A stretch of DNA of 64,000 nt, taken from assembly GCA_947085185.1 (NCBI GenBank), contig CAMTVK010000021.1:32001-96000 (forward strand). The letters run 5' to 3'. Position numbers and translations under genes: made by a program. The stretch is from Candidatus Fraserbacteria bacterium. Its GTDB lineage: Bacteria; Bipolaricaulota; Bipolaricaulia; RBG-16-55-9; DRXL01. The notes beneath the pieces were generated by a model that saw nothing but the letters and a program-made list of their open reading frames with translations, ran no database searches and was not told the DNA's origin. This document shows, piece by piece, positions 46,423 through 53,228 of this stretch (position 1 is its first letter; every line of letters begins with the position of its first letter).

Positions 46423-47019
46423 ATGGGAGAGTCGGCCAAGACCAGGCTCAGCTACGAGGAGTTCTTAAAGCTCTACGACGAAGACGTCCACGCCGAGTGG
46501 ATGGACGGCGAGGTGATTCTGTTGTCCCCAGCATCGAGTCGTCATCAAGATCTCTCAGATTTCTTAACAGCCATCTTGAGAGCGTATGTGGAAGCCAAGC
46601 GGCTTGGTGTCGTGCGATCAGCACCCTTCCAGATGCGCCTTGGGCTTTCTGGGCGCGAGCCCGATCTGCTCTTTGTAGCCCAAGAACATATAGAGCGCCT
46701 CCAAGAGAACTATCTTGACGGCCCAGCAGATCTCGTCATTGAGATCGTCTCACCGGAGAGCCGCCTGCGCGACCGAGGCGAAAAATTAGCTGAATATGAG
46801 CTCTCTGGCGTGCGTGAGTATTGGCTCATTGACCCCGAGGAGAAGCGCGCCGATTTTTATATTCTCGGCGATGACGGGCGCTATGACCGCCGTCGGTCTG
46901 GACCTGAGGGGCGCTATCGCTCCGAAGTCTTGAAGGGCTTTGAGCTGGACACAAACTGGCTCTGGCGTTCTCCTCTGCCCCCGGTGCTCGAGGTCCTGCG
47001 GGAGCTCCGGCTCGTCTAA
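46423..47019 (+). CDS. Uma2 family endonuclease (DUF820)
   Basis: REPDLLFV, PADLVIEIVSP, DRGEK..EY..GVREYWLIDP; TTGACA-17-TACAGT upstream. Confidence 0.92.
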   Translation: MGESAKTRLSYEEFLKLYDEDVHAEWMDGEVILLSPASSRHQDLSDFLTAILRAYVEAKRLGVVRSAPFQMRLGLSGREPDLLFVAQEHIERLQENYLDGPADLVIEIVSPESRLRDRGEKLAEYELSGVREYWLIDPEEKRADFYILGDDGRYDRRRSGPEGRYRSEVLKGFELDTNWLWRSPLPPVLEVLRELRLV

Positions 47020-47043
47020 AGCTCGCGTGTTCCCCTCAAACAC

Positions 47044-47087
47044 TTGACAAAATCTTTGTTTGCCCATATAATTAGGACTCCTAATTA
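47044..47087 (+). promoter_or_regulatory. Sigma70 promoter with overlapping palindromic operator
   Basis: TTGACA-17-TATAAT; perfect 9-1-9 palindrome TAATTAGGA-C-TCCTAATTA at 47069-47087. Confidence 0.85.
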
Positions 47088-47114
47088 AATCTCGCAACGC
47101 TCAGGAGGTTCGCT

Positions 47115-47693
47115 ATGACGACTATTCCCGGCTACGCCTACGGGAGCGCCGCTCCCTCGCCCGTCACAATGAAAGAGCTCAATGAGCTCAAGCAAGCCGT
47201 GCTCTTCACCCCCGAAGACGAAAGATATCTCAAGATGGCCGGCGAAGTCCTCAAAGACCAGATCGAAGAAGTGCTCGATCTGTGGTACGGCTTTGTGGGG
47301 TCCCATCCCCACCTGGTCTATTATTTCTCTGGGCCAGACGGCAAGCCCGACGCAAATTATCTTGCTGCGGTGCGCAAGCGCTTCGGCCAGTGGATCTTGG
47401 ACACGTGCACCCGTCCGTATGATCAGACTTGGCTGAACTATCAGCACGAGATCGGGCTGCGCCACCACCGCACCAAGAAGAACCAAACAGATAGAGCTCG
47501 TTCAGTGCCCATCGTCCCATTACGATATCTCATTGCGTTCATCTATCCCATCACGGCGACGATCAAGCCCTTCTTGGCCAAGAAGGGGCACAGTCCCGAA
47601 GATCTTGAGAAAATGCATCAGGCATGGTTCAAGTCGGTGACGCTCCAAGTGGCGTTGTGGAGCTTCCCCTATGCGAAAGATCGAGATTTCTGA
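47115..47693 (+). CDS. Protoglobin
   Basis: IPGYAYG, WYGFVGSHPHL, RFGQWILDT, EIGLRHHRTKKN, QVALWSFPY. Confidence 0.93.
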   Translation: MTTIPGYAYGSAAPSPVTMKELNELKQAVLFTPEDERYLKMAGEVLKDQIEEVLDLWYGFVGSHPHLVYYFSGPDGKPDANYLAAVRKRFGQWILDTCTRPYDQTWLNYQHEIGLRHHRTKKNQTDRARSVPIVPLRYLIAFIYPITATIKPFLAKKGHSPEDLEKMHQAWFKSVTLQVALWSFPYAKDRDF

Positions 47694-48283
47694 TGAGTGA
47701 ACTCGACGAGAAGCTGGTGGCGGCGCTGGAGCGGCTCTCGCATGTGATGCGAACGCTTCTGTGGGAAGAGGCTGTGCAGAGCCGCCTCAGCCCCATTCAG
47801 ATTCAGACGCTGATCTATCTGAGTTCACATCCGGAAGAGCTTTGCCGGGTAGGGCAGCTCGCCCACGAGTTCGGGCTCACCCCAGCGACCATCAGCGATG
47901 CTGTGGATGCCCTCGCAGAGAAGGGTCTTCTTGTACGTCGGCCCTGGCCTGAAGACGGGCGCGTCTTGACGTTGTGCTTAACGACCGAGGGCCAGCGTCA
48001 AGCGCAAAGGCTTTCGCGTTGGACCGAAGCGCTTCAAGAGCAGATCGCGCCCTTCCCCCTCGCAGAGAAGGAGCGTGCCTTGAGGTTCTTCTTGGAGCTC
48101 ATCGAGCGGCTCTATCGCGCGGGGATCATCACAGTTGCGCGGGTGTGCTTGACGTGCCGGTTCTTCCGCGCGAACGCCCATCCCAACTCGCAGACCCCGC
48201 ACCATTGCGCATTAATGGACAAGCCCTTGGCCGAGAGCAAGCTGCGCGTCGATTGCCCCGAGCATGAAGCGGCTCATTGCTGA
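47693..48283 (+). CDS. MarR family regulator with C-terminal Cys/His cluster
   Basis: LSPIQIQ..., ATISDAV..L..KGLL, DGR; CLTCRFF...HHC...DCPEH. Confidence 0.9.
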   Translation: MSELDEKLVAALERLSHVMRTLLWEEAVQSRLSPIQIQTLIYLSSHPEELCRVGQLAHEFGLTPATISDAVDALAEKGLLVRRPWPEDGRVLTLCLTTEGQRQAQRLSRWTEALQEQIAPFPLAEKERALRFFLELIERLYRAGIITVARVCLTCRFFRANAHPNSQTPHHCALMDKPLAESKLRVDCPEHEAAHC

Positions 48284-48831
48284 GCGCTCCTAGAGCTTTT
48301 TGCCAACAGCCAGATCACTCCCACCCCTAACAGCACATCCCCCACGCTGAACGCATTAGCAAACGGCACCCAGCTTGGCACCCAAAAGATATCTCCCAAA
48401 AGATTGAGCTTCGTCTGATCGCTCATCATGATGACATTCCCGAAGACGCCTTCTGTCAGCAATCTCTCGACTGTGGCTGTTCTGCCCGCAGCCCGCAGGG
48501 CTTCAAGGGACGCTGGCATATGCCCCCCATTGACGGTAATGACAAGAAAATTCGAGAGCATCCCCAGGGCCATCAACCACAGGGCCTTCTCGCGATAATT
48601 GAGCCCCACAAAGAGCAGTAAGAGCAGATACGACCCTATGTGTAAAAACTCCATGCCCCAAGTGACGAGGGGCTTCGATCCTGCCCCTAGGGGCAGGATC
48701 AGAATTTGCACGAGCACAGCGAGCAGCACCAGCCAGCTTGCACGCAGTTTCAGCTCTGCTAAATGGGCTATCCCTCGATGGCGTACTAGTCCAACGAGAA
48801 GCCCTAAGAGAATCGCCCAGAGGAGAACCAT
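48274..48831 (-). CDS. DUF5317 family membrane protein
   Basis: GMLSNFLVITVNGGHMP, LLGDIF, AFSVGDVL motifs; multiple TM helices. Confidence 0.85.
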   Translation of the reverse strand: MVLLWAILLGLLVGLVRHRGIAHLAELKLRASWLVLLAVLVQILILPLGAGSKPLVTWGMEFLHIGSYLLLLLFVGLNYREKALWLMALGMLSNFLVITVNGGHMPASLEALRAAGRTATVERLLTEGVFGNVIMMSDQTKLNLLGDIFWVPSWVPFANAFSVGDVLLGVGVIWLLAKSSRSAQQ

Positions 48832-50111
48832 AGGGGTTCTTTCAGTTCATCGGAGATGACGCGCACGAGCGCCTCGACGACCTTTGGGTCGAACTGGCGG
48901 CCGCTTTCTGCTTGGATGAGGCGCACGGCCTCGGCGGGCTCGTAGTGTCTGGGTTTCCCTTGGGATTCGCGATACAGACGATCGCTCGTCAGAGCATGGT
49001 AGACATCAGCGACGTGGATGATGCGTGCGCCCAGGGGGATCTGTTCGCCCTTGAGGCCGTCGGGGTAGCCGGAGCCGTCCCAGCGCTCATGTTCGTATTT
49101 GACCAAGTGGGCGGCTTCGCTGTACATCTCTAAGTTTTTGAGCAGATCGAAGCCGATGACGGTGTGTTGTTTGACGAGCTGCCATTCGGGGTCATTGAGG
49201 GGGCCGGGCTTATTGAGGATATCGTCGGGGATGCCGACCTTGCCGATGTCATGGACGAGTGCGGCGGTGCGGATCGTCTCGATTTGGTCTTCGGGGAGTT
49301 CCATCTCGCGCGCGATCTTTTCGGCCAAGTCCGCGACTTCTTCGGAGTGTTCTGCCGTGTAGGGATCGCGCTCGTGGAGCATTTTGACCATGGTTTCGAT
49401 GGTGCGTTGGGTTTCCCTGCGGAGCTTGGAGTAGCCGCGCAGGGTGAGGTGGACGCCGACGGCAGGGATGAGCACCAAGAGCGTCTGCCAGGGAGCTTGG
49501 ACGTAGACGACAGCAGTCAAGATCGCAATGATGCCGATAGCAAGAACTTGGAAGGGGAGATGACGAATATGGAAGGTCACGAGTTTTGAGAACCTGATGC
49601 GCTGAGTTAGGTGAAGGATCCCAGAAACGAGGATTGTATTTGTTGCCGCGTAGCCGGCATAAGCGAGAACGAGCGGAACTATCTCAGCCAACGATTTATA
49701 CGGTGGCGAATGGCCGCCAAATGCCTGAAAGATCAAGACAGCTGCCCAACTGCTGAGTACTATTTGGCTTGTGTTGAAAGCAACACGAGAGAAAAAATAT
49801 AGCGGATCCTCTCGTAAACGATACCATCGCAAGACGATCTCAGCAAAGAGCGTTCCTAGTAGGACGCTCCAGAGCATTGCTGGCGGCCCGGCGATGAACA
49901 GTACGGCACAGTATATGATCTCAGATGTTGACATACTGCGCCGTGAAGCAATTTCGACTTCGAAGAGGTCAGCCAAAAACGCAAGGATCGTAGCGATCAG
50001 CACCAGCATTATCGGTGTCGGATCGTTCTGGATGCGAGGCAAATAGAAACTAAGCGGGGCAAAACTTAGAAGGACGACAAACCAGACATACACTCTTACT
50101 TGCCAACTCAT
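48804..50111 (-). CDS. Membrane-anchored HD-GYP domain protein (cyclic dinucleotide phosphodiesterase family)
   Basis: Multi-TM N-terminal half; RDPYTAEHS, HDIGK, HERWDGSGYPDGLKGEQIP, ADVYHALTS, QFDP. Confidence 0.92.
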   Translation of the reverse strand: MSWQVRVYVWFVVLLSFAPLSFYLPRIQNDPTPIMLVLIATILAFLADLFEVEIASRRSMSTSEIIYCAVLFIAGPPAMLWSVLLGTLFAEIVLRWYRLREDPLYFFSRVAFNTSQIVLSSWAAVLIFQAFGGHSPPYKSLAEIVPLVLAYAGYAATNTILVSGILHLTQRIRFSKLVTFHIRHLPFQVLAIGIIAILTAVVYVQAPWQTLLVLIPAVGVHLTLRGYSKLRRETQRTIETMVKMLHERDPYTAEHSEEVADLAEKIAREMELPEDQIETIRTAALVHDIGKVGIPDDILNKPGPLNDPEWQLVKQHTVIGFDLLKNLEMYSEAAHLVKYEHERWDGSGYPDGLKGEQIPLGARIIHVADVYHALTSDRLYRESQGKPRHYEPAEAVRLIQAESGRQFDPKVVEALVRVISDELKEPLWFSSGRFS

Positions 50112-50130
50112 GTTGGCAGCATTATATGCA

Positions 50131-50163
50131 AAATAAAAAAGGGAGTCCAATCCGGACTCCCTT
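50131..50163 (-). terminator. Intrinsic terminator after the small peptide gene
   Basis: Minus strand AGGGAGTCC-GGATT-GGACTCCCT followed by a long T tract. Confidence 0.8.
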
Positions 50164-50184
50164 GGGGAATTTCAGAGTTTGAGC

Positions 50185-50328
50185 TTATGTCCACTTCTGA
50201 CCGGCACCGCTCATGAGCACGAAGGCGCTGATGATAGCGAGAATATAGAGCACCCGCGCCCCGATCTTCTCCTTCACCCAACCGGCTACTCGCTCTGCTA
50301 CCTGCCCGTTGTATTCTCCCCACTTCAT
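50185..50328 (-). CDS. 47-aa putative signalling-peptide precursor (absent from the ORF track)
   Basis: MKWGEYNGQVAERVAGWVKEKIGARVLYILAIISAFVLMSGAGQKWT*; AAAGGAGG RBS 8 nt upstream; own promoter and terminator. Confidence 0.85.
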   Translation of the reverse strand: MKWGEYNGQVAERVAGWVKEKIGARVLYILAIISAFVLMSGAGQKWT

Positions 50329-50364
50329 GGTCGTTGCCTCCTTTATGTTGTTGTTGATGGCCAT

Positions 50365-50393
50365 ATTTTATATGCACTTGTATGTTTTGTCAA
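50365..50393 (-). promoter_or_regulatory. Sigma70 promoter of the peptide gene
   Basis: Minus strand TTGACA-17 bp-TAAAAT. Confidence 0.8.
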
Positions 50394-50425
50394 GAGCTAT
50401 AACAAAAATCGCGAGTGATTCTTTT

Positions 50426-51811
50426 TTAAGAGGGCCGAAATTCCCGCCGAAAGACCCGCTCACCCCCAGTATCAATGTACTCCACCGTGAGCCGCCCGTC
50501 GCCTAAGACCGTGATCTGCCCGAAATTCCAATGCTGATTGCTCCCGAAAATCCGCGTGGGATTGAGCGTTTCATCGAGCTGCCCCATGTACGACGTCAGG
50601 GCGCTCAGCGGCCCCGCAGTAAACTCATAAAAGTCTATCGCCCCATCGCGATTGGGATCATAGTGAATGACATCGATGAGGTGCTCGTCCCCGGTGAGCC
50701 AGACGACGTTCTTGATCTTGTTCTGCATGATGAAATCGCTGATCTCGATGAGCTCGCGCTCAAAGCCCGTCTCGCTCTCGCCGTTGGCCCAGCTGTCGCA
50801 CGCCGCCGGACAATCCGAAGGGAACGAGAGCTTGACTGTCGAGGCAATGAACTTCCAGGTCGCGTTGGAGGTGCGCAGGCTCTCTTTGAGCCACGCAAGC
50901 TGCTCTCGGCCGAGCATGGTCTTATCTGGGCCATCGGGGCGCTTATTGTCGCTACGGTACTGCCGTGTGTCCAAGATAAAGATCTCGACGTGCTGGCCCC
51001 ACCGGAACGAACGATATAAACGATGGGGATCTTGGGGGTTCACCGTGATGGGGAAGAACTCGAAGAAGACTTGCCGACCGATAGCTAATCTCTGGGGATC
51101 TACGGTCGTGCCCGAAAAGTTATTGATCACCTCGTGATCGTCCCAGATCATATACAGGCTCGTAGCGGCGCGCGCTTTTTGATAGGGCTTATCGGCAAGC
51201 TGATATTTCTGCTTGGCCCGATATTCTTCTAGCGTGTTGGCGACGAACTCACTGCCGGGGGCATTGGGCGGACTAGGGCAGCGCTCGTCGTTATACACCG
51301 TGTCGCCGAGGAAGAGAAAGAAATCGGGCTGGGCTTCAGTCAAGTGATTGAAGATAAAATACTCTGGGCGGCGGCACATGCCCTGACCCCCCAAGTCAGC
51401 GCTCCAGGCGAATTTCACGGGACTAGGGGCGTTGGCTTGTGGAGCCGTGATGAACGTCCCGGCGACGGGCGCGCTCTGCTCACTCCCCAATACTTGGCGC
51501 ACGCGATAGGAATAGCGTGTCGCTGGAGTAAGCCCCGTGAGCACGACCTTGCCGGTGAAGTCCGACTCTGGCTTGAGGACAACAGGCTCGGCGCGCTGCA
51601 CGTCGCGGAAGTCCTCGCTGGTGCTGTACTCCACCACGAGCGTTGAGTTGGGGGCTTCCGCCCCGCGCGCCCAGATGATCGCGCTCTGGGGGGTGACGTC
51701 GCCGGAAGAGACCCCATGGGTGATCGCAAGTTTGGCGCCCGCTCCCACACTGAAAGGAGCAAGAGCCCCGCCGATGAACAACAGAACCCCGACTCTGAAG
51801 AGATTTTTCAT
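50426..51811 (-). CDS. phoD: Alkaline phosphatase D (PhoD) family
   Basis: HGVSSGD, FLGDTVY, IWDDHEV, LDTRQYR, LTGDEH; signal peptide; AGGAGG RBS. Confidence 0.92.
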   Translation of the reverse strand: MKNLFRVGVLLFIGGALAPFSVGAGAKLAITHGVSSGDVTPQSAIIWARGAEAPNSTLVVEYSTSEDFRDVQRAEPVVLKPESDFTGKVVLTGLTPATRYSYRVRQVLGSEQSAPVAGTFITAPQANAPSPVKFAWSADLGGQGMCRRPEYFIFNHLTEAQPDFFLFLGDTVYNDERCPSPPNAPGSEFVANTLEEYRAKQKYQLADKPYQKARAATSLYMIWDDHEVINNFSGTTVDPQRLAIGRQVFFEFFPITVNPQDPHRLYRSFRWGQHVEIFILDTRQYRSDNKRPDGPDKTMLGREQLAWLKESLRTSNATWKFIASTVKLSFPSDCPAACDSWANGESETGFERELIEISDFIMQNKIKNVVWLTGDEHLIDVIHYDPNRDGAIDFYEFTAGPLSALTSYMGQLDETLNPTRIFGSNQHWNFGQITVLGDGRLTVEYIDTGGERVFRREFRPS

Positions 51812-51900
51812 AGTCCTGCACCTCCTGAGAGAGATTATAGCCATACTGTGGCGATCTGCCAAATGAGTCGGCAGCCCAATGGAGCATGCGCTCATAAGCT

Positions 51901-52110
51901 TCATAAATATTTTTTGAACTCTTCTTCAGTCATGCCGATCTGCTTCAGGATAGCCCGATAGAGCCCAGACTTTAGCTCTCGGCTATGGACTGGCACGGTT
52001 GTCCATCGTCCATCAGGATGGGCATAGATAGCCTCACTGCCCTTCTGGCGTTTGCGGCGAAACCCCAGCTTTTCTAGGGCCTTCTGCACCTCAGGGGAGC
52101 GCGGCGGCAT
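51901..52110 (-). CDS. hicA: HicA family toxin
   Basis: LEKLGF..RQKGSE, TTVPVH, LYRAILKQIG. Confidence 0.85.
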   Translation of the reverse strand: MPPRSPEVQKALEKLGFRRKRQKGSEAIYAHPDGRWTTVPVHSRELKSGLYRAILKQIGMTEEEFKKYL

Positions 52111-52306
52111 AGTCTGGTTCTGGGATGGGCTGCCCAGCTTCCCTCAAATGCTCGATGACAAGCTCCATCGCATCAAGGACGTTCTGCAAGGTCTCTTCAT
52201 ATGTTTCGCCCTCAGCGAAACATCCTGGAAGTGCAGGGACTTCCGCCCAAAAGCCCCCCTCTGGCGCAGGGTGAATGACGACTCTATACCGGCGCTCGCT
52301 GCTCAT
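52091..52306 (-). CDS. hicB: HicB family antitoxin
   Basis: EGGFWAEVPALPGCFAEGETYEE. Confidence 0.9.
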   Translation of the reverse strand: MSSERRYRVVIHPAPEGGFWAEVPALPGCFAEGETYEETLQNVLDAMELVIEHLREAGQPIPEPDYAAALP

Positions 52307-52319
52307 GTATGATCATCTC

Positions 52320-53228
52320 CTAGCGCATCAAGAGCACGAGCACAGCTTTTTGCGCGTGGAGTCTGTTTTCGGCTTCGTCGAAGATCGCGCTCTGCGGCCC
52401 GTGCGCGACTTCGTGCGTGATCTCCTCCCCATAGTGCGCCGGCAGACAGTGCATAACTAGAGCATCGGGCTTGGCCAGCTTGAGCAGCTCTTGATTGATC
52501 TGAAAGTCTCTAAATCTCTTGCGGCGCTCTTCGGCTTCACGCTCTTGGCCCATCGAGGTCCACACGTCGGTGTAGAGAATATCGGCTCCTTGAGCAGCCA
52601 GCTTGGGAGCGTGAACGATCTCGACTCTGCCCAGGCGCCGCGCTCGATCTAAGATCTGTGCGTTCGGCTCATGCCCTGTAGGGCACGCGACTATGATCTC
52701 CATGCCGAGCTTGGGCCCGGCTTCCAGCCAGGAATTGCACACATTGTTCCCGTCGCCGATCCACCCGAGCTTCAGCCCCTCCAATCTGCGCTTCTTCTCA
52801 TAGACCGTCAGCAGATCCCCCAAAATCTGACAGGGGTGCAGCAGATCCGAAAGCCCGTTGATCACGGGCACGTCAGAGTATTTCGCAAGCTCCTCGACGA
52901 TCTCATGGCCGAAGACCCGCGCCATGATCCCGTCGCAGTACCGAGAGAGCACTTTGGCGATATCCTCGATCGTCTCGCGCTGGCCGAGCTTAATATCGTC
53001 TGGGCCCAGATAGATCGCATGGCCTCCAAGCTGGGTCATGCCCACTTCGAACGAGACCCGTGTGCGCAGTGACGGCTTCTGAAAGATCATGGCGAGCGTC
53101 TTGCCCGCCAGCATGCTATGGGCGATGCCGGCGCGGTGCTCCCGCTTGAGCTGCACCGCCGTCTCCAGAAGCTCCCACACGTCTTCAGCCGTATAGTCAG
53201 CAAACGAGATGAGATGCCTATGGCGCAT
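52320..53228 (-). CDS. argF: Ornithine carbamoyltransferase
   Basis: PSLRTR, HPCQ, DVWTSMG, HCLP, AENRLH. Confidence 0.96.
   Translation of the reverse strand: MRHRHLISFADYTAEDVWELLETAVQLKREHRAGIAHSMLAGKTLAMIFQKPSLRTRVSFEVGMTQLGGHAIYLGPDDIKLGQRETIEDIAKVLSRYCDGIMARVFGHEIVEELAKYSDVPVINGLSDLLHPCQILGDLLTVYEKKRRLEGLKLGWIGDGNNVCNSWLEAGPKLGMEIIVACPTGHEPNAQILDRARRLGRVEIVHAPKLAAQGADILYTDVWTSMGQEREAEERRKRFRDFQINQELLKLAKPDALVMHCLPAHYGEEITHEVAHGPQSAIFDEAENRLHAQKAVLVLLMR

Follow-up and report, generated by a model that had tools for sequence, protein, structure and literature searches.

Organization of the Cassette

A cassette of three genes is present in the window, a 64,000-nt stretch of contig CAMTVK010000021.1 from a Candidatus Fraserbacteria genome. 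It encodes a 47-aa membrane peptide, an HD-GYP protein with a MASE9-type membrane sensor, and a membrane protein of the family DUF5317. An original prediction, made from the sequence, had proposed that they form a peptide-signalling system. The cassette lies entirely on the minus strand, and its order on that strand is promoter, ribosome-binding site (RBS), 47-codon open reading frame (ORF), terminator, HD-GYP gene, and DUF5317 gene; each of these elements was recovered where it had been predicted. The features are as follows, with coordinates of the whole window.

50365..50393, minus strand: putative sigma-70-type promoter of the peptide gene, TTGACA-17-TAAAAT
50337..50344, minus strand: Shine-Dalgarno sequence AAAGGAGG, 8 nt 5' of the ATG at 50328
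50185..50328, minus strand: 47-aa membrane peptide, likely a precursor (ORF and homologues)
50129..50163, minus strand: intrinsic terminator 3' of the peptide gene, 11-pair stem (50163-50139) plus T tail
50121..50149, minus strand: second promoter-like site, TGGACT-17-TATAAT, 10/12 consensus positions, putative role
48804..50111, minus strand: 435-aa protein, MASE9-type sensor (residues 1-226) and HD-GYP domain (residues 240-411; HD_5, E 6.6e-40)
48274..48831, minus strand: DUF5317, 185-aa five-helix membrane protein, candidate LspA-like aspartic peptidase (Pfam, E 2.6e-38)

The promoter of the peptide gene matches the consensus at 11 of 12 positions and is the best among four sites, with 2.7 ± 1.8 sites scoring at least 9/12 in shuffled controls. 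Similar -35 and -10 elements are visible 5' of the same-genus peptide copies. In the transcript ensemble, 9 of 10 tested bases in the 5' arm of the terminator are paired with P of at least 0.91, and GC-rich hairpins with T runs, judged by eye, follow the last peptide copy in many relatives. The second promoter-like site overlaps this terminator, and the peptide gene and the receptor and peptidase genes are therefore probably carried on separate transcripts. Its TATAAT box ends 10 nt 5' of the HD-GYP start and is retained in the related loci L037 and L043. The HD-GYP/DUF5317 transcript is suggested to be near-leaderless. The region around the HD-GYP start (50126-50109, minus strand) has no Shine-Dalgarno sequence. 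The DUF5317 gene overlaps the HD-GYP gene by 28 nt.

A Conserved Family of Small Membrane Peptides

The 47-aa peptide has no family match in Pfam or NCBIfam. It starts with MKWG, continues through a basic amphipathic stretch and a hydrophobic helix (about residues 27-40) into the tail SG-AGQKWT, and ends ...FVLMSGAGQKWT. A scan with a hidden Markov model (HMM) found one copy only in the source genome.

DUF5317 was found in 129 of 151 genomes of the phylum Bipolaricaulota, and 40 loci, picked for long contigs and family spread, were fetched from these genomes. A plain motif filter recognized peptides at 28 of the 40 loci. The HMM, which was seeded from the same Bipolaricaulota loci, found homologous peptide ORFs at 33 with a 12-bit threshold, at which the 50,719 reading-frame ends in the own genome gave one non-self match. 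The seven misses include one ORF scoring 9.4, two loci without upstream sequence, and four split cassettes. A small conserved ORF near other DUF5317 genes, as the original prediction anticipated, is thus common in the phylum.

GGAGG, read by eye, precedes 32 of the 33 homologous copies. Tandem copies (2-5) are present at 12 of the 40 loci, and almost every copy has an RBS to itself. Pairwise differences among six same-genus copies number 220, 92, and 72 at codon positions 3, 1, and 2, respectively. The homologues, the RBS conservation, and the third-position bias together establish that the peptide ORF is a real translated gene.

The Bipolaricaulota consensus runs from MKWG through a basic stretch and a hydrophobic helix to SGAxxKW. 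K2 and W3 are conserved at 90% or more in 32 Bipolaricaulota peptides. The charge bias indicates an N-in/C-out orientation for 32/32 Bipolaricaulota peptides and 18/24 others, in agreement with the predicted membrane peptide with basic N-region, helix, and short tail. When two false matches (one at L035 and one overlapping frame in L140) are excluded, a tail Lys or Arg is present in 85 of 87 distinct peptides from all loci. Among the 85 peptides anchored on this residue, Trp follows directly in 75, Ala stands three residues before it in 73, and Gly, Ala, or Ser stands four residues before it in 68. The Trp of the tail, emphasized in the original prediction, is therefore common without being invariant, and the constant feature is the basic residue before it. 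At the +1 position, 73 of them have Ala, 7 have Glu, and 3 have Ser; none has Cys. In the lipobox-like LMSG^A of the original prediction, both the +1 Ala and the -1 Gly vary.

Different tails are found in separate cassettes of a single genome (G153). A universal Trp modification similar to that of ComX was ruled out, since tails ending in KF, KL, and KGF occur. AAG is used at both Lys codons (30/33 and 31/33 copies, against 65% AAG in the genome); this was not accepted as an RNA motif, as the copies are related.

The MKWG start (50328-50317, minus strand) echoes the C-terminal KW(G). At locus L057, both ends are altered together (MRLG...FKLG), which is a single case. The echo may mean that both ends bind one site, or that the repeat seeds tandem duplications.

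Near-identical peptide genes, 165-170 bp apart, form an array of five at L067:3043-3896 and one of three at L068:2945-3454; their tails are longer, of the E-S-I-K-W-R-P-G-G-R type with Glu at +1. Two peptide types (GAGMRW and EAGxRW) stand in tandem behind one DUF5317 gene at L112, L123, L148, L206, L207, and L209. Another type, with the tail GAGAPEDGGG..R, lies directly 5' of DUF5317 at L237:2738 and L238:1979, and no MASE9 gene was seen in these two fetched stretches.

The position of the ORF also raises the alternative of a translation-coupled leader, a Trp attenuator or arrest peptide that would govern read-through into the HD-GYP gene. The ORF lies upstream, stops 21 nt before the terminator, and contains Trp codons both at its beginning and at its end. 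However, tandem arrays of up to five copies, the location of many Chloroflexota copies 3' of DUF5317, the Trp-less tails, and the separate promoter-like site of the HD-GYP gene do not fit a leader. The transcript ensemble contains no competing antiterminator, and an Rfam search of window positions 47000-52500 up to E 1 gave no match. A leader function is extremely improbable.

Linkage and Distribution of the Module

The HD-GYP gene adjoins DUF5317 at 35 of the 40 fetched loci, and in the split cassettes (G071, G117, G149, and G020) the peptide stands beside the MASE9-HD-GYP gene in 4/4. Among 20 Bipolaricaulota genomes negative for DUF5317 (70-96% complete), 18 also have no MASE9 match, and one of the remaining two held a DUF5317-like ORF missed by the first search. 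The peptide, HD-GYP, and DUF5317 genes constitute a conserved module.

The Bipolaricaulota-seeded HMM recognized peptides in Euzebya and Subdoligranulum and, more weakly, in Natranaerobius; the peptide has relatives in Chloroflexota, Actinomycetota, and Bacillota. Eighty further DUF5317 loci were selected by pattern, of which 78 are titled Chloroflexota, a bias arising from the search alignment. The peptide is present at 35 of the 80. All 14 loci with a MASE9-like GGDEF-EAL gene have it, against 21 of the 66 others. At the remaining 45 loci, no peptide or MASE9 gene lies within 5 kb. Five of these orphan-locus genomes were scanned in full, and each of them carries peptides next to a further DUF5317 copy. 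The orphan copies (45 loci within L074-L153) share a conserved setting in the neighbours scanned: an HPPD-like dioxygenase gene lies upstream in the opposite orientation, and a gene for prolyl oligopeptidase, proline dehydrogenase, or P5C reductase converges on DUF5317.

A more even sample comprised 101 Chloroflexota genomes, with the centre genome G153 not randomly drawn. DUF5317 was found in 33, MASE9 in 17, both in 13, and both adjacent in 11 (Fisher p 6e-5 for co-occurrence, overstated by kinship). Among 14 control genomes, the same two carry both. A peptide ORF lies just 5' in 10 of the 11 adjacent cassettes, and the eleventh begins at a contig edge. Four of these ten ORFs score above 12 bits, four score 7-11, and two came from a relaxed scan.

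DUF5317 is fused to an MFS transporter in seven of the 11 Chloroflexota cassettes, and a full-score MFS domain was present in 8 of 23 long DUF5317 homologues scanned. The fusions at L220, L222-L225, L227, and L228 belong to MASE9-HD-GYP cassettes with distinct tails (GGASFKGW, GGATLKGF, and GGASLRGF). The outputs coupled to the peptide, MASE9, and DUF5317 are HD-GYP, GGDEF-EAL, or a kinase. The proposal that the system feeds into second-messenger turnover rather than a two-component system therefore fits the HD-GYP and GGDEF-EAL cassettes, and does not extend to one Chloroflexota cassette with a MASE9-histidine kinase (L221).

On the Euzebya plasmid NZ_CP031166.1 (L071:4839-7379), DUF5317 is fused N-terminally to an EAL protein, and both a peptide gene and a GGDEF-EAL gene of the MASE9-like type lie 5' of the fusion. 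On the Natranaerobius plasmid NZ_CP144220.1 (L072:3493-5291), MASE9-HD-GYP and DUF5317 are each annotated as two pieces. Plasmid searches returned only three named records outside Bipolaricaulota and Chloroflexota. Thermus thermophilus and Thermotoga maritima each carry both DUF5317 and MASE9; both species are cultured, which makes the module experimentally approachable.

DUF5317 as a Candidate Peptidase

The DUF5317 model (predicted local distance difference test, pLDDT, 91.8) has five membrane helices. G90, N94, N101, and P106 are invariant in 268 DUF5317 sequences, and D147, S162, G164, and D165 are present in 267 of them. Loop Lys/Arg charges place residues 101-162 outside, which fits the C-terminal EAL and MFS fusions.

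The original prediction compared DUF5317 to the lipoprotein signal peptidase LspA, for which 14 conserved residues, with the aspartates D118 and D136, are described in the accessible text of PMC6952399. By that description, G90/N94, L145/D147, and F161/S162/G164/D165 of DUF5317 parallel G102/N106, V116/D118, and F132/N133/A135/D136 of LspA in the same order and spacing, the two aspartates being 18 residues apart. Five of the 14 residues are identical and three conservatively replaced in order; N52/G54 are matched only out of order, by N101/G103. A joint motif, designed post hoc, matched three of the 5,489 ORFs in the own genome, two of which are LspA and DUF5317. VIA aligned the LspA structures 5DIR and 6RYP to DUF5317 residues 43-185 with Z 5.3 and a root-mean-square deviation (rmsd) of 3.0-3.4 Å; the alignments cover 90-92 residues with 18-20% identity and rank 34th and 40th among 48,161. 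They are the only long alignments at 18-20% identity among the VIA top 50. With hhalign, FSVGD of DUF5317 fell in register with FNxAD of LspA.

Several results weigh against the likeness. LspA residues D21, K25, D109, and R110, taken from the same accessible text, have no counterpart in DUF5317. The VIA Z of 5.3 falls within the noise band (under 8). Foldseek gave no match with the DUF5317 model, LspA being absent among the matches listed. The hhalign probability is 6-14%, the first Asp is misaligned by three residues, and the score of 24.9 compares with 27.7 for reversed LspA and with 23.4 for LspA against MASE9. Column shuffles, none of 100 of which reached 24.9, were dropped as evidence because of the score of reversed LspA. 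An own-genome sequence-profile cross-search puts DUF5317 108th. The DUF5317 profile had no match among Protein Data Bank (PDB) sequences up to E 10, and DUF5317 did not match Pfam Peptidase_A8. The source genome retains a normal LspA.

Thus, the motif order, the spacing, and the outer face of the original comparison stand. Common descent with LspA is not statistically established, and the test for membership in family A8 was negative. It is nevertheless likely, on the residue pattern and the model, that DUF5317 works like LspA as a peptidase.

The missing significant match by Foldseek, the hhalign controls, and the cross-search, together with the absent DR pair, also bear on another explanation. 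DUF5317 could be a non-peptidase that serves the microprotein as a modifying enzyme, chaperone, or scaffold, or whose substrate is a lipid, with MASE9 sensing a small cytoplasmic metabolite. S-component folds, the type predicted for MASE9 below, bind vitamins and metals according to the titles of matched structures, and the 45 orphan loci have neither peptide nor receptor nearby. However, two near-invariant outward aspartates with LspA order and spacing lie beside a helix-plus-short-tail partner, both LspA structures stand apart in the VIA top 50 as described, and the five orphan genomes tested all encode peptides next to a further copy of DUF5317. This explanation is clearly unlikely.

The MASE9 Sensor and the HD-GYP Output

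The MASE9 match of the 435-aa protein in Pfam (E 0.002, 18.5-19.3 bits) is under the cut-off of 24.3. MASE9 clusters in the ESM Atlas gave 0.94-0.95, close homologues carry PF20972, and a profile of the window-type sensor group finds a clear MASE9 member (L072) at E 1e-17. The domain has eight membrane segments including a short intramembrane hairpin. In the HD-GYP domain, H255, H287, D288, H316, H341, E342, G348-Y349-P350, and D369 are invariant in 47 sequences. The metal-binding motifs are intact, and the domain is predicted to be a cyclic di-GMP (c-di-GMP) phosphodiesterase. A motif search of the genome identified a single GGDEF protein, G000:C2:29523-30644. No EAL protein was found there, and the HD-GYP protein of the cassette may therefore be the sole c-di-GMP hydrolase.

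The top five Foldseek matches of the MASE9 model (pLDDT 90.0) are RibU (E 0.009, probability 1.0). The VIA top 14 rows are all S-components of energy-coupling factor (ECF) transporters (Z 10.7-16.2), covering model residues 29-208; the RibU alignment comprises 160/170 residues with an rmsd of 3.2. The S-component fold thus spans about residues 29-208, with one flanking helix on each side, and the hydrophobic helix 209-226 connects H6 to the cytoplasmic HD-GYP domain.

The loops on the L1/L3/L5 side contain 9.6 Lys and Arg residues versus 1.3 on the other side, and the bias has the same direction in 63/63 sequences (39 Bipolaricaulota and 24 distant). E48, S61, F112, N113, and Q/N116, kept across phyla, sit on this side. 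The loops were named from aligned ranges and the helix pattern, not by residue-level superposition. In S-components and S-fold kinases, the pocket is directed outward and H6 terminates in the cytoplasm, according to the available part of PMC11109136. From the charge bias and the extra helix after H6, the MASE9 pocket is predicted to open to the cytoplasm. MASE9 is accordingly predicted by modelling to be an inverted ECF S-component fold, with its ligand side facing the cytoplasm. Its outer loops are short and show little conservation. Galperin and Chou (10.1101/2021.11.05.467447, main text) likewise describe MASE9 with eight segments, poorly conserved outer loops, and no ligand.

This orientation bears on the proposal that the HD-GYP membrane domain senses the released peptide from outside. 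Such an Agr-like mechanism, in which the tail would directly bind the MASE9 outer face, has in its favour that the DUF5317 dyad and the tail are both outside, that a single cassette holds precursor, peptidase, and receptor, and that tails vary between cassettes. However, the canonical ligand side carries the K/R-rich loops in every sequence compared, and the outer loops offer little conserved surface, as also noted in the main text of 10.1101/2021.11.05.467447. With a tail freed outside and a pocket predicted to face inward, direct outer sensing without re-import is very unlikely, and this part of the original prediction would need revising.

A Proposed Peptide-Signalling Circuit

The preferred reading, with a probability of roughly 0.4, is a circuit of export, cutting, and re-import. 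It builds on observed elements: the genes, their conservation and linkage, the HD-GYP motifs, and the DUF5317 aspartates. The small gene would produce a membrane-anchored precursor. DUF5317 would likely cut it just past the helix, at SG|A, with an uncertainty of one residue in the cut site. Here the LspA-like core with its outer dyad is modelled, as is the inverted S-component MASE9 of the later steps. The cut outside would free an A-x-x-K-W tail of 5-10 residues, which would return via the fused MFS carrier where present and otherwise via oligopeptide permeases. The returned tail would bind the cytoplasm-facing MASE9 pocket and switch the c-di-GMP phosphodiesterase. Cleavage, cut site, re-import, binding, and the direction of regulation are all putative. 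The own promoter and terminator, the tandem copies, and the cassette-specific tails are precursor-like traits, which support this reading.

The following points weigh against the circuit. Lys and Trp are common anchors at the membrane interface, and the conservation of the tail therefore need not mean a ligand. The conserved MKWG start of the Bipolaricaulota peptides is left unexplained. The window cassette has no transporter gene, and Opp-type genes (Pfam-confirmed among the chosen neighbours scanned) adjoin only 4 of the 40 loci, two of them from one genus. More than half of the pattern-selected DUF5317 loci are orphans, and since the genomes are related, the linkage counts overstate independence. 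In Streptomyces venezuelae, deletion of hdgA, which encodes the one studied MASE9 protein, had no developmental phenotype, according to the available text of PMC6205966.

The MKWG start bears on a cell-autonomous alternative, in which the membrane-retained peptide, intact or as the leader remaining after the cut, would bind MASE9 within the membrane by its cytoplasmic MKWG end or its helix, and processing by DUF5317 would switch this control on or off with no communication between cells. This would explain the conservation of K2 and W3. Both the MASE9 pocket and the residues conserved in MASE9 map to the cytoplasmic or inner-leaflet face, and binding within the membrane was proposed by Galperin and Chou (10.1101/2021.11.05.467447, main text). 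MKW starts recur in three Chloroflexota cassettes with KW-ending tails, both ends co-change at L057 (one case), and the peptide stays with the receptor gene in split cassettes. However, an N-terminal MKW is absent from most Chloroflexota, Euzebya, and Bacillota peptides, while the tail Lys or Arg is nearly always kept; two KF-tail peptides retain MKW, and the ends thus do not always co-vary; and the MFS fusions are unexplained. The retained peptide is the leading alternative, though unlikely, as the ligand.

If the circuit of export, cutting, and re-import is true, it would provide the first ligand for MASE9, a function for DUF5317, and a direct link from peptide to c-di-GMP across thermophiles, Chloroflexota, Actinomycetota, and Bacillota. 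Enzymes resembling signal peptidase II would then have a second branch, and the S-component fold would be seen to serve in an inverted orientation as well. Few membrane-bound c-di-GMP enzymes have a known input; the module names a small, synthesisable candidate ligand and offers a candidate processing enzyme with two candidate catalytic residues and a predicted receptor orientation. More tentatively, the module may represent a widespread class, in which an LspA-derived peptidase cuts Cys-less micro-precursors and a receptor with an inverted vitamin-transporter fold reads the returned K-W peptide inside.

No paper naming DUF5317 was found in the literature searched, which omits most subscription journals. 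MASE9 appears there in a single paper, and none of the papers listed concerned the module itself. DUF5317 and the peptide are not mentioned in the main text of 10.1101/2021.11.05.467447 or in the available text of PMC6205966. The cassette of the window would be a peptide-signalling circuit of real and conserved genes, hitherto undescribed, with a predicted signalling role.

Flanking Genes

PhoD lies upstream of the cassette, and convergent MarR and protoglobin genes lie downstream. These neighbours differ among relatives and are outside the module. The protoglobin gene and, after it, the gene of the MarR regulator, which has a Cys-rich C-terminus, span 47115-48283 on the plus strand and are convergent with DUF5317. 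Close homologues are labelled Candidatus Bipolaricaulota or Acetothermia by their sources.

Comparison with Known Systems

LspA (PF01252) has a four-helix core with the same in/out pattern as DUF5317 helices 2-5, in an alignment below significance. The shared features are G-x3-N on the third core helix, F-x-x-[AG]-D opening the last helix, an outer-surface pair of aspartates spaced by 18, and a substrate-like partner whose helix leads into L/M-S-G|A. Unlike LspA, DUF5317 has an extra N-terminal helix and an insertion of about 45 residues before the first Asp, and unlike LspA substrates, its partner peptide has no Cys for lipidation at +1.

According to the available texts of 10.1101/2021.11.05.467447 and PMC6205966, TM1467 of T. 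maritima and HdgA of S. venezuelae have eight predicted segments, a short hairpin, and HD-GYP, as does the window protein, and other MASE9 proteins have GGDEF-EAL outputs, as observed here. The fold and orientation predicted here are not given for MASE9 in those texts. The 5TMR-LYT kinases such as BtsS and YpdA, as described in the available part of PMC11109136, which does not mention MASE domains, also use a six-helix S-component core as a sensor with an extra N-terminal helix. Their H6 enters the cytoplasm and their pocket faces out, whereas the window protein has an eighth helix after H6 and a pocket predicted inside.

The proposed circuit would resemble the Bacillus Phr scheme of export, cutting, and re-import. 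In the Phr-Rap and other RRNPP systems of Bacillota, a short secreted precursor with a C-terminal cargo of 5-8 residues is cut outside and re-imported, and the peptide acts on a signalling enzyme inside through a TPR receptor. The module differs in having a membrane sensor as the receptor, a dedicated aspartic-type membrane enzyme in the cassette, and c-di-GMP or a kinase as the output.

Agr and ComQXPA combine a precursor, a dedicated membrane processing enzyme, and a membrane receptor in one locus, with strain-variable tails. The window locus also joins a precursor, a processing-enzyme candidate, and a membrane receptor, and its tails vary among relatives. Unlike in Agr, the peptide has no Cys for a thiolactone; unlike in ComX, Trp is not invariant; and unlike in both systems, the receptor pocket is predicted to face inward. 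Pfam and NCBIfam scans of the locus gave no match to the AgrB, ComQ, AgrC/ComP, or TPR receptor families. The three parts of the module fit no known peptide-signalling family, though their logic is that of known peptide signalling.

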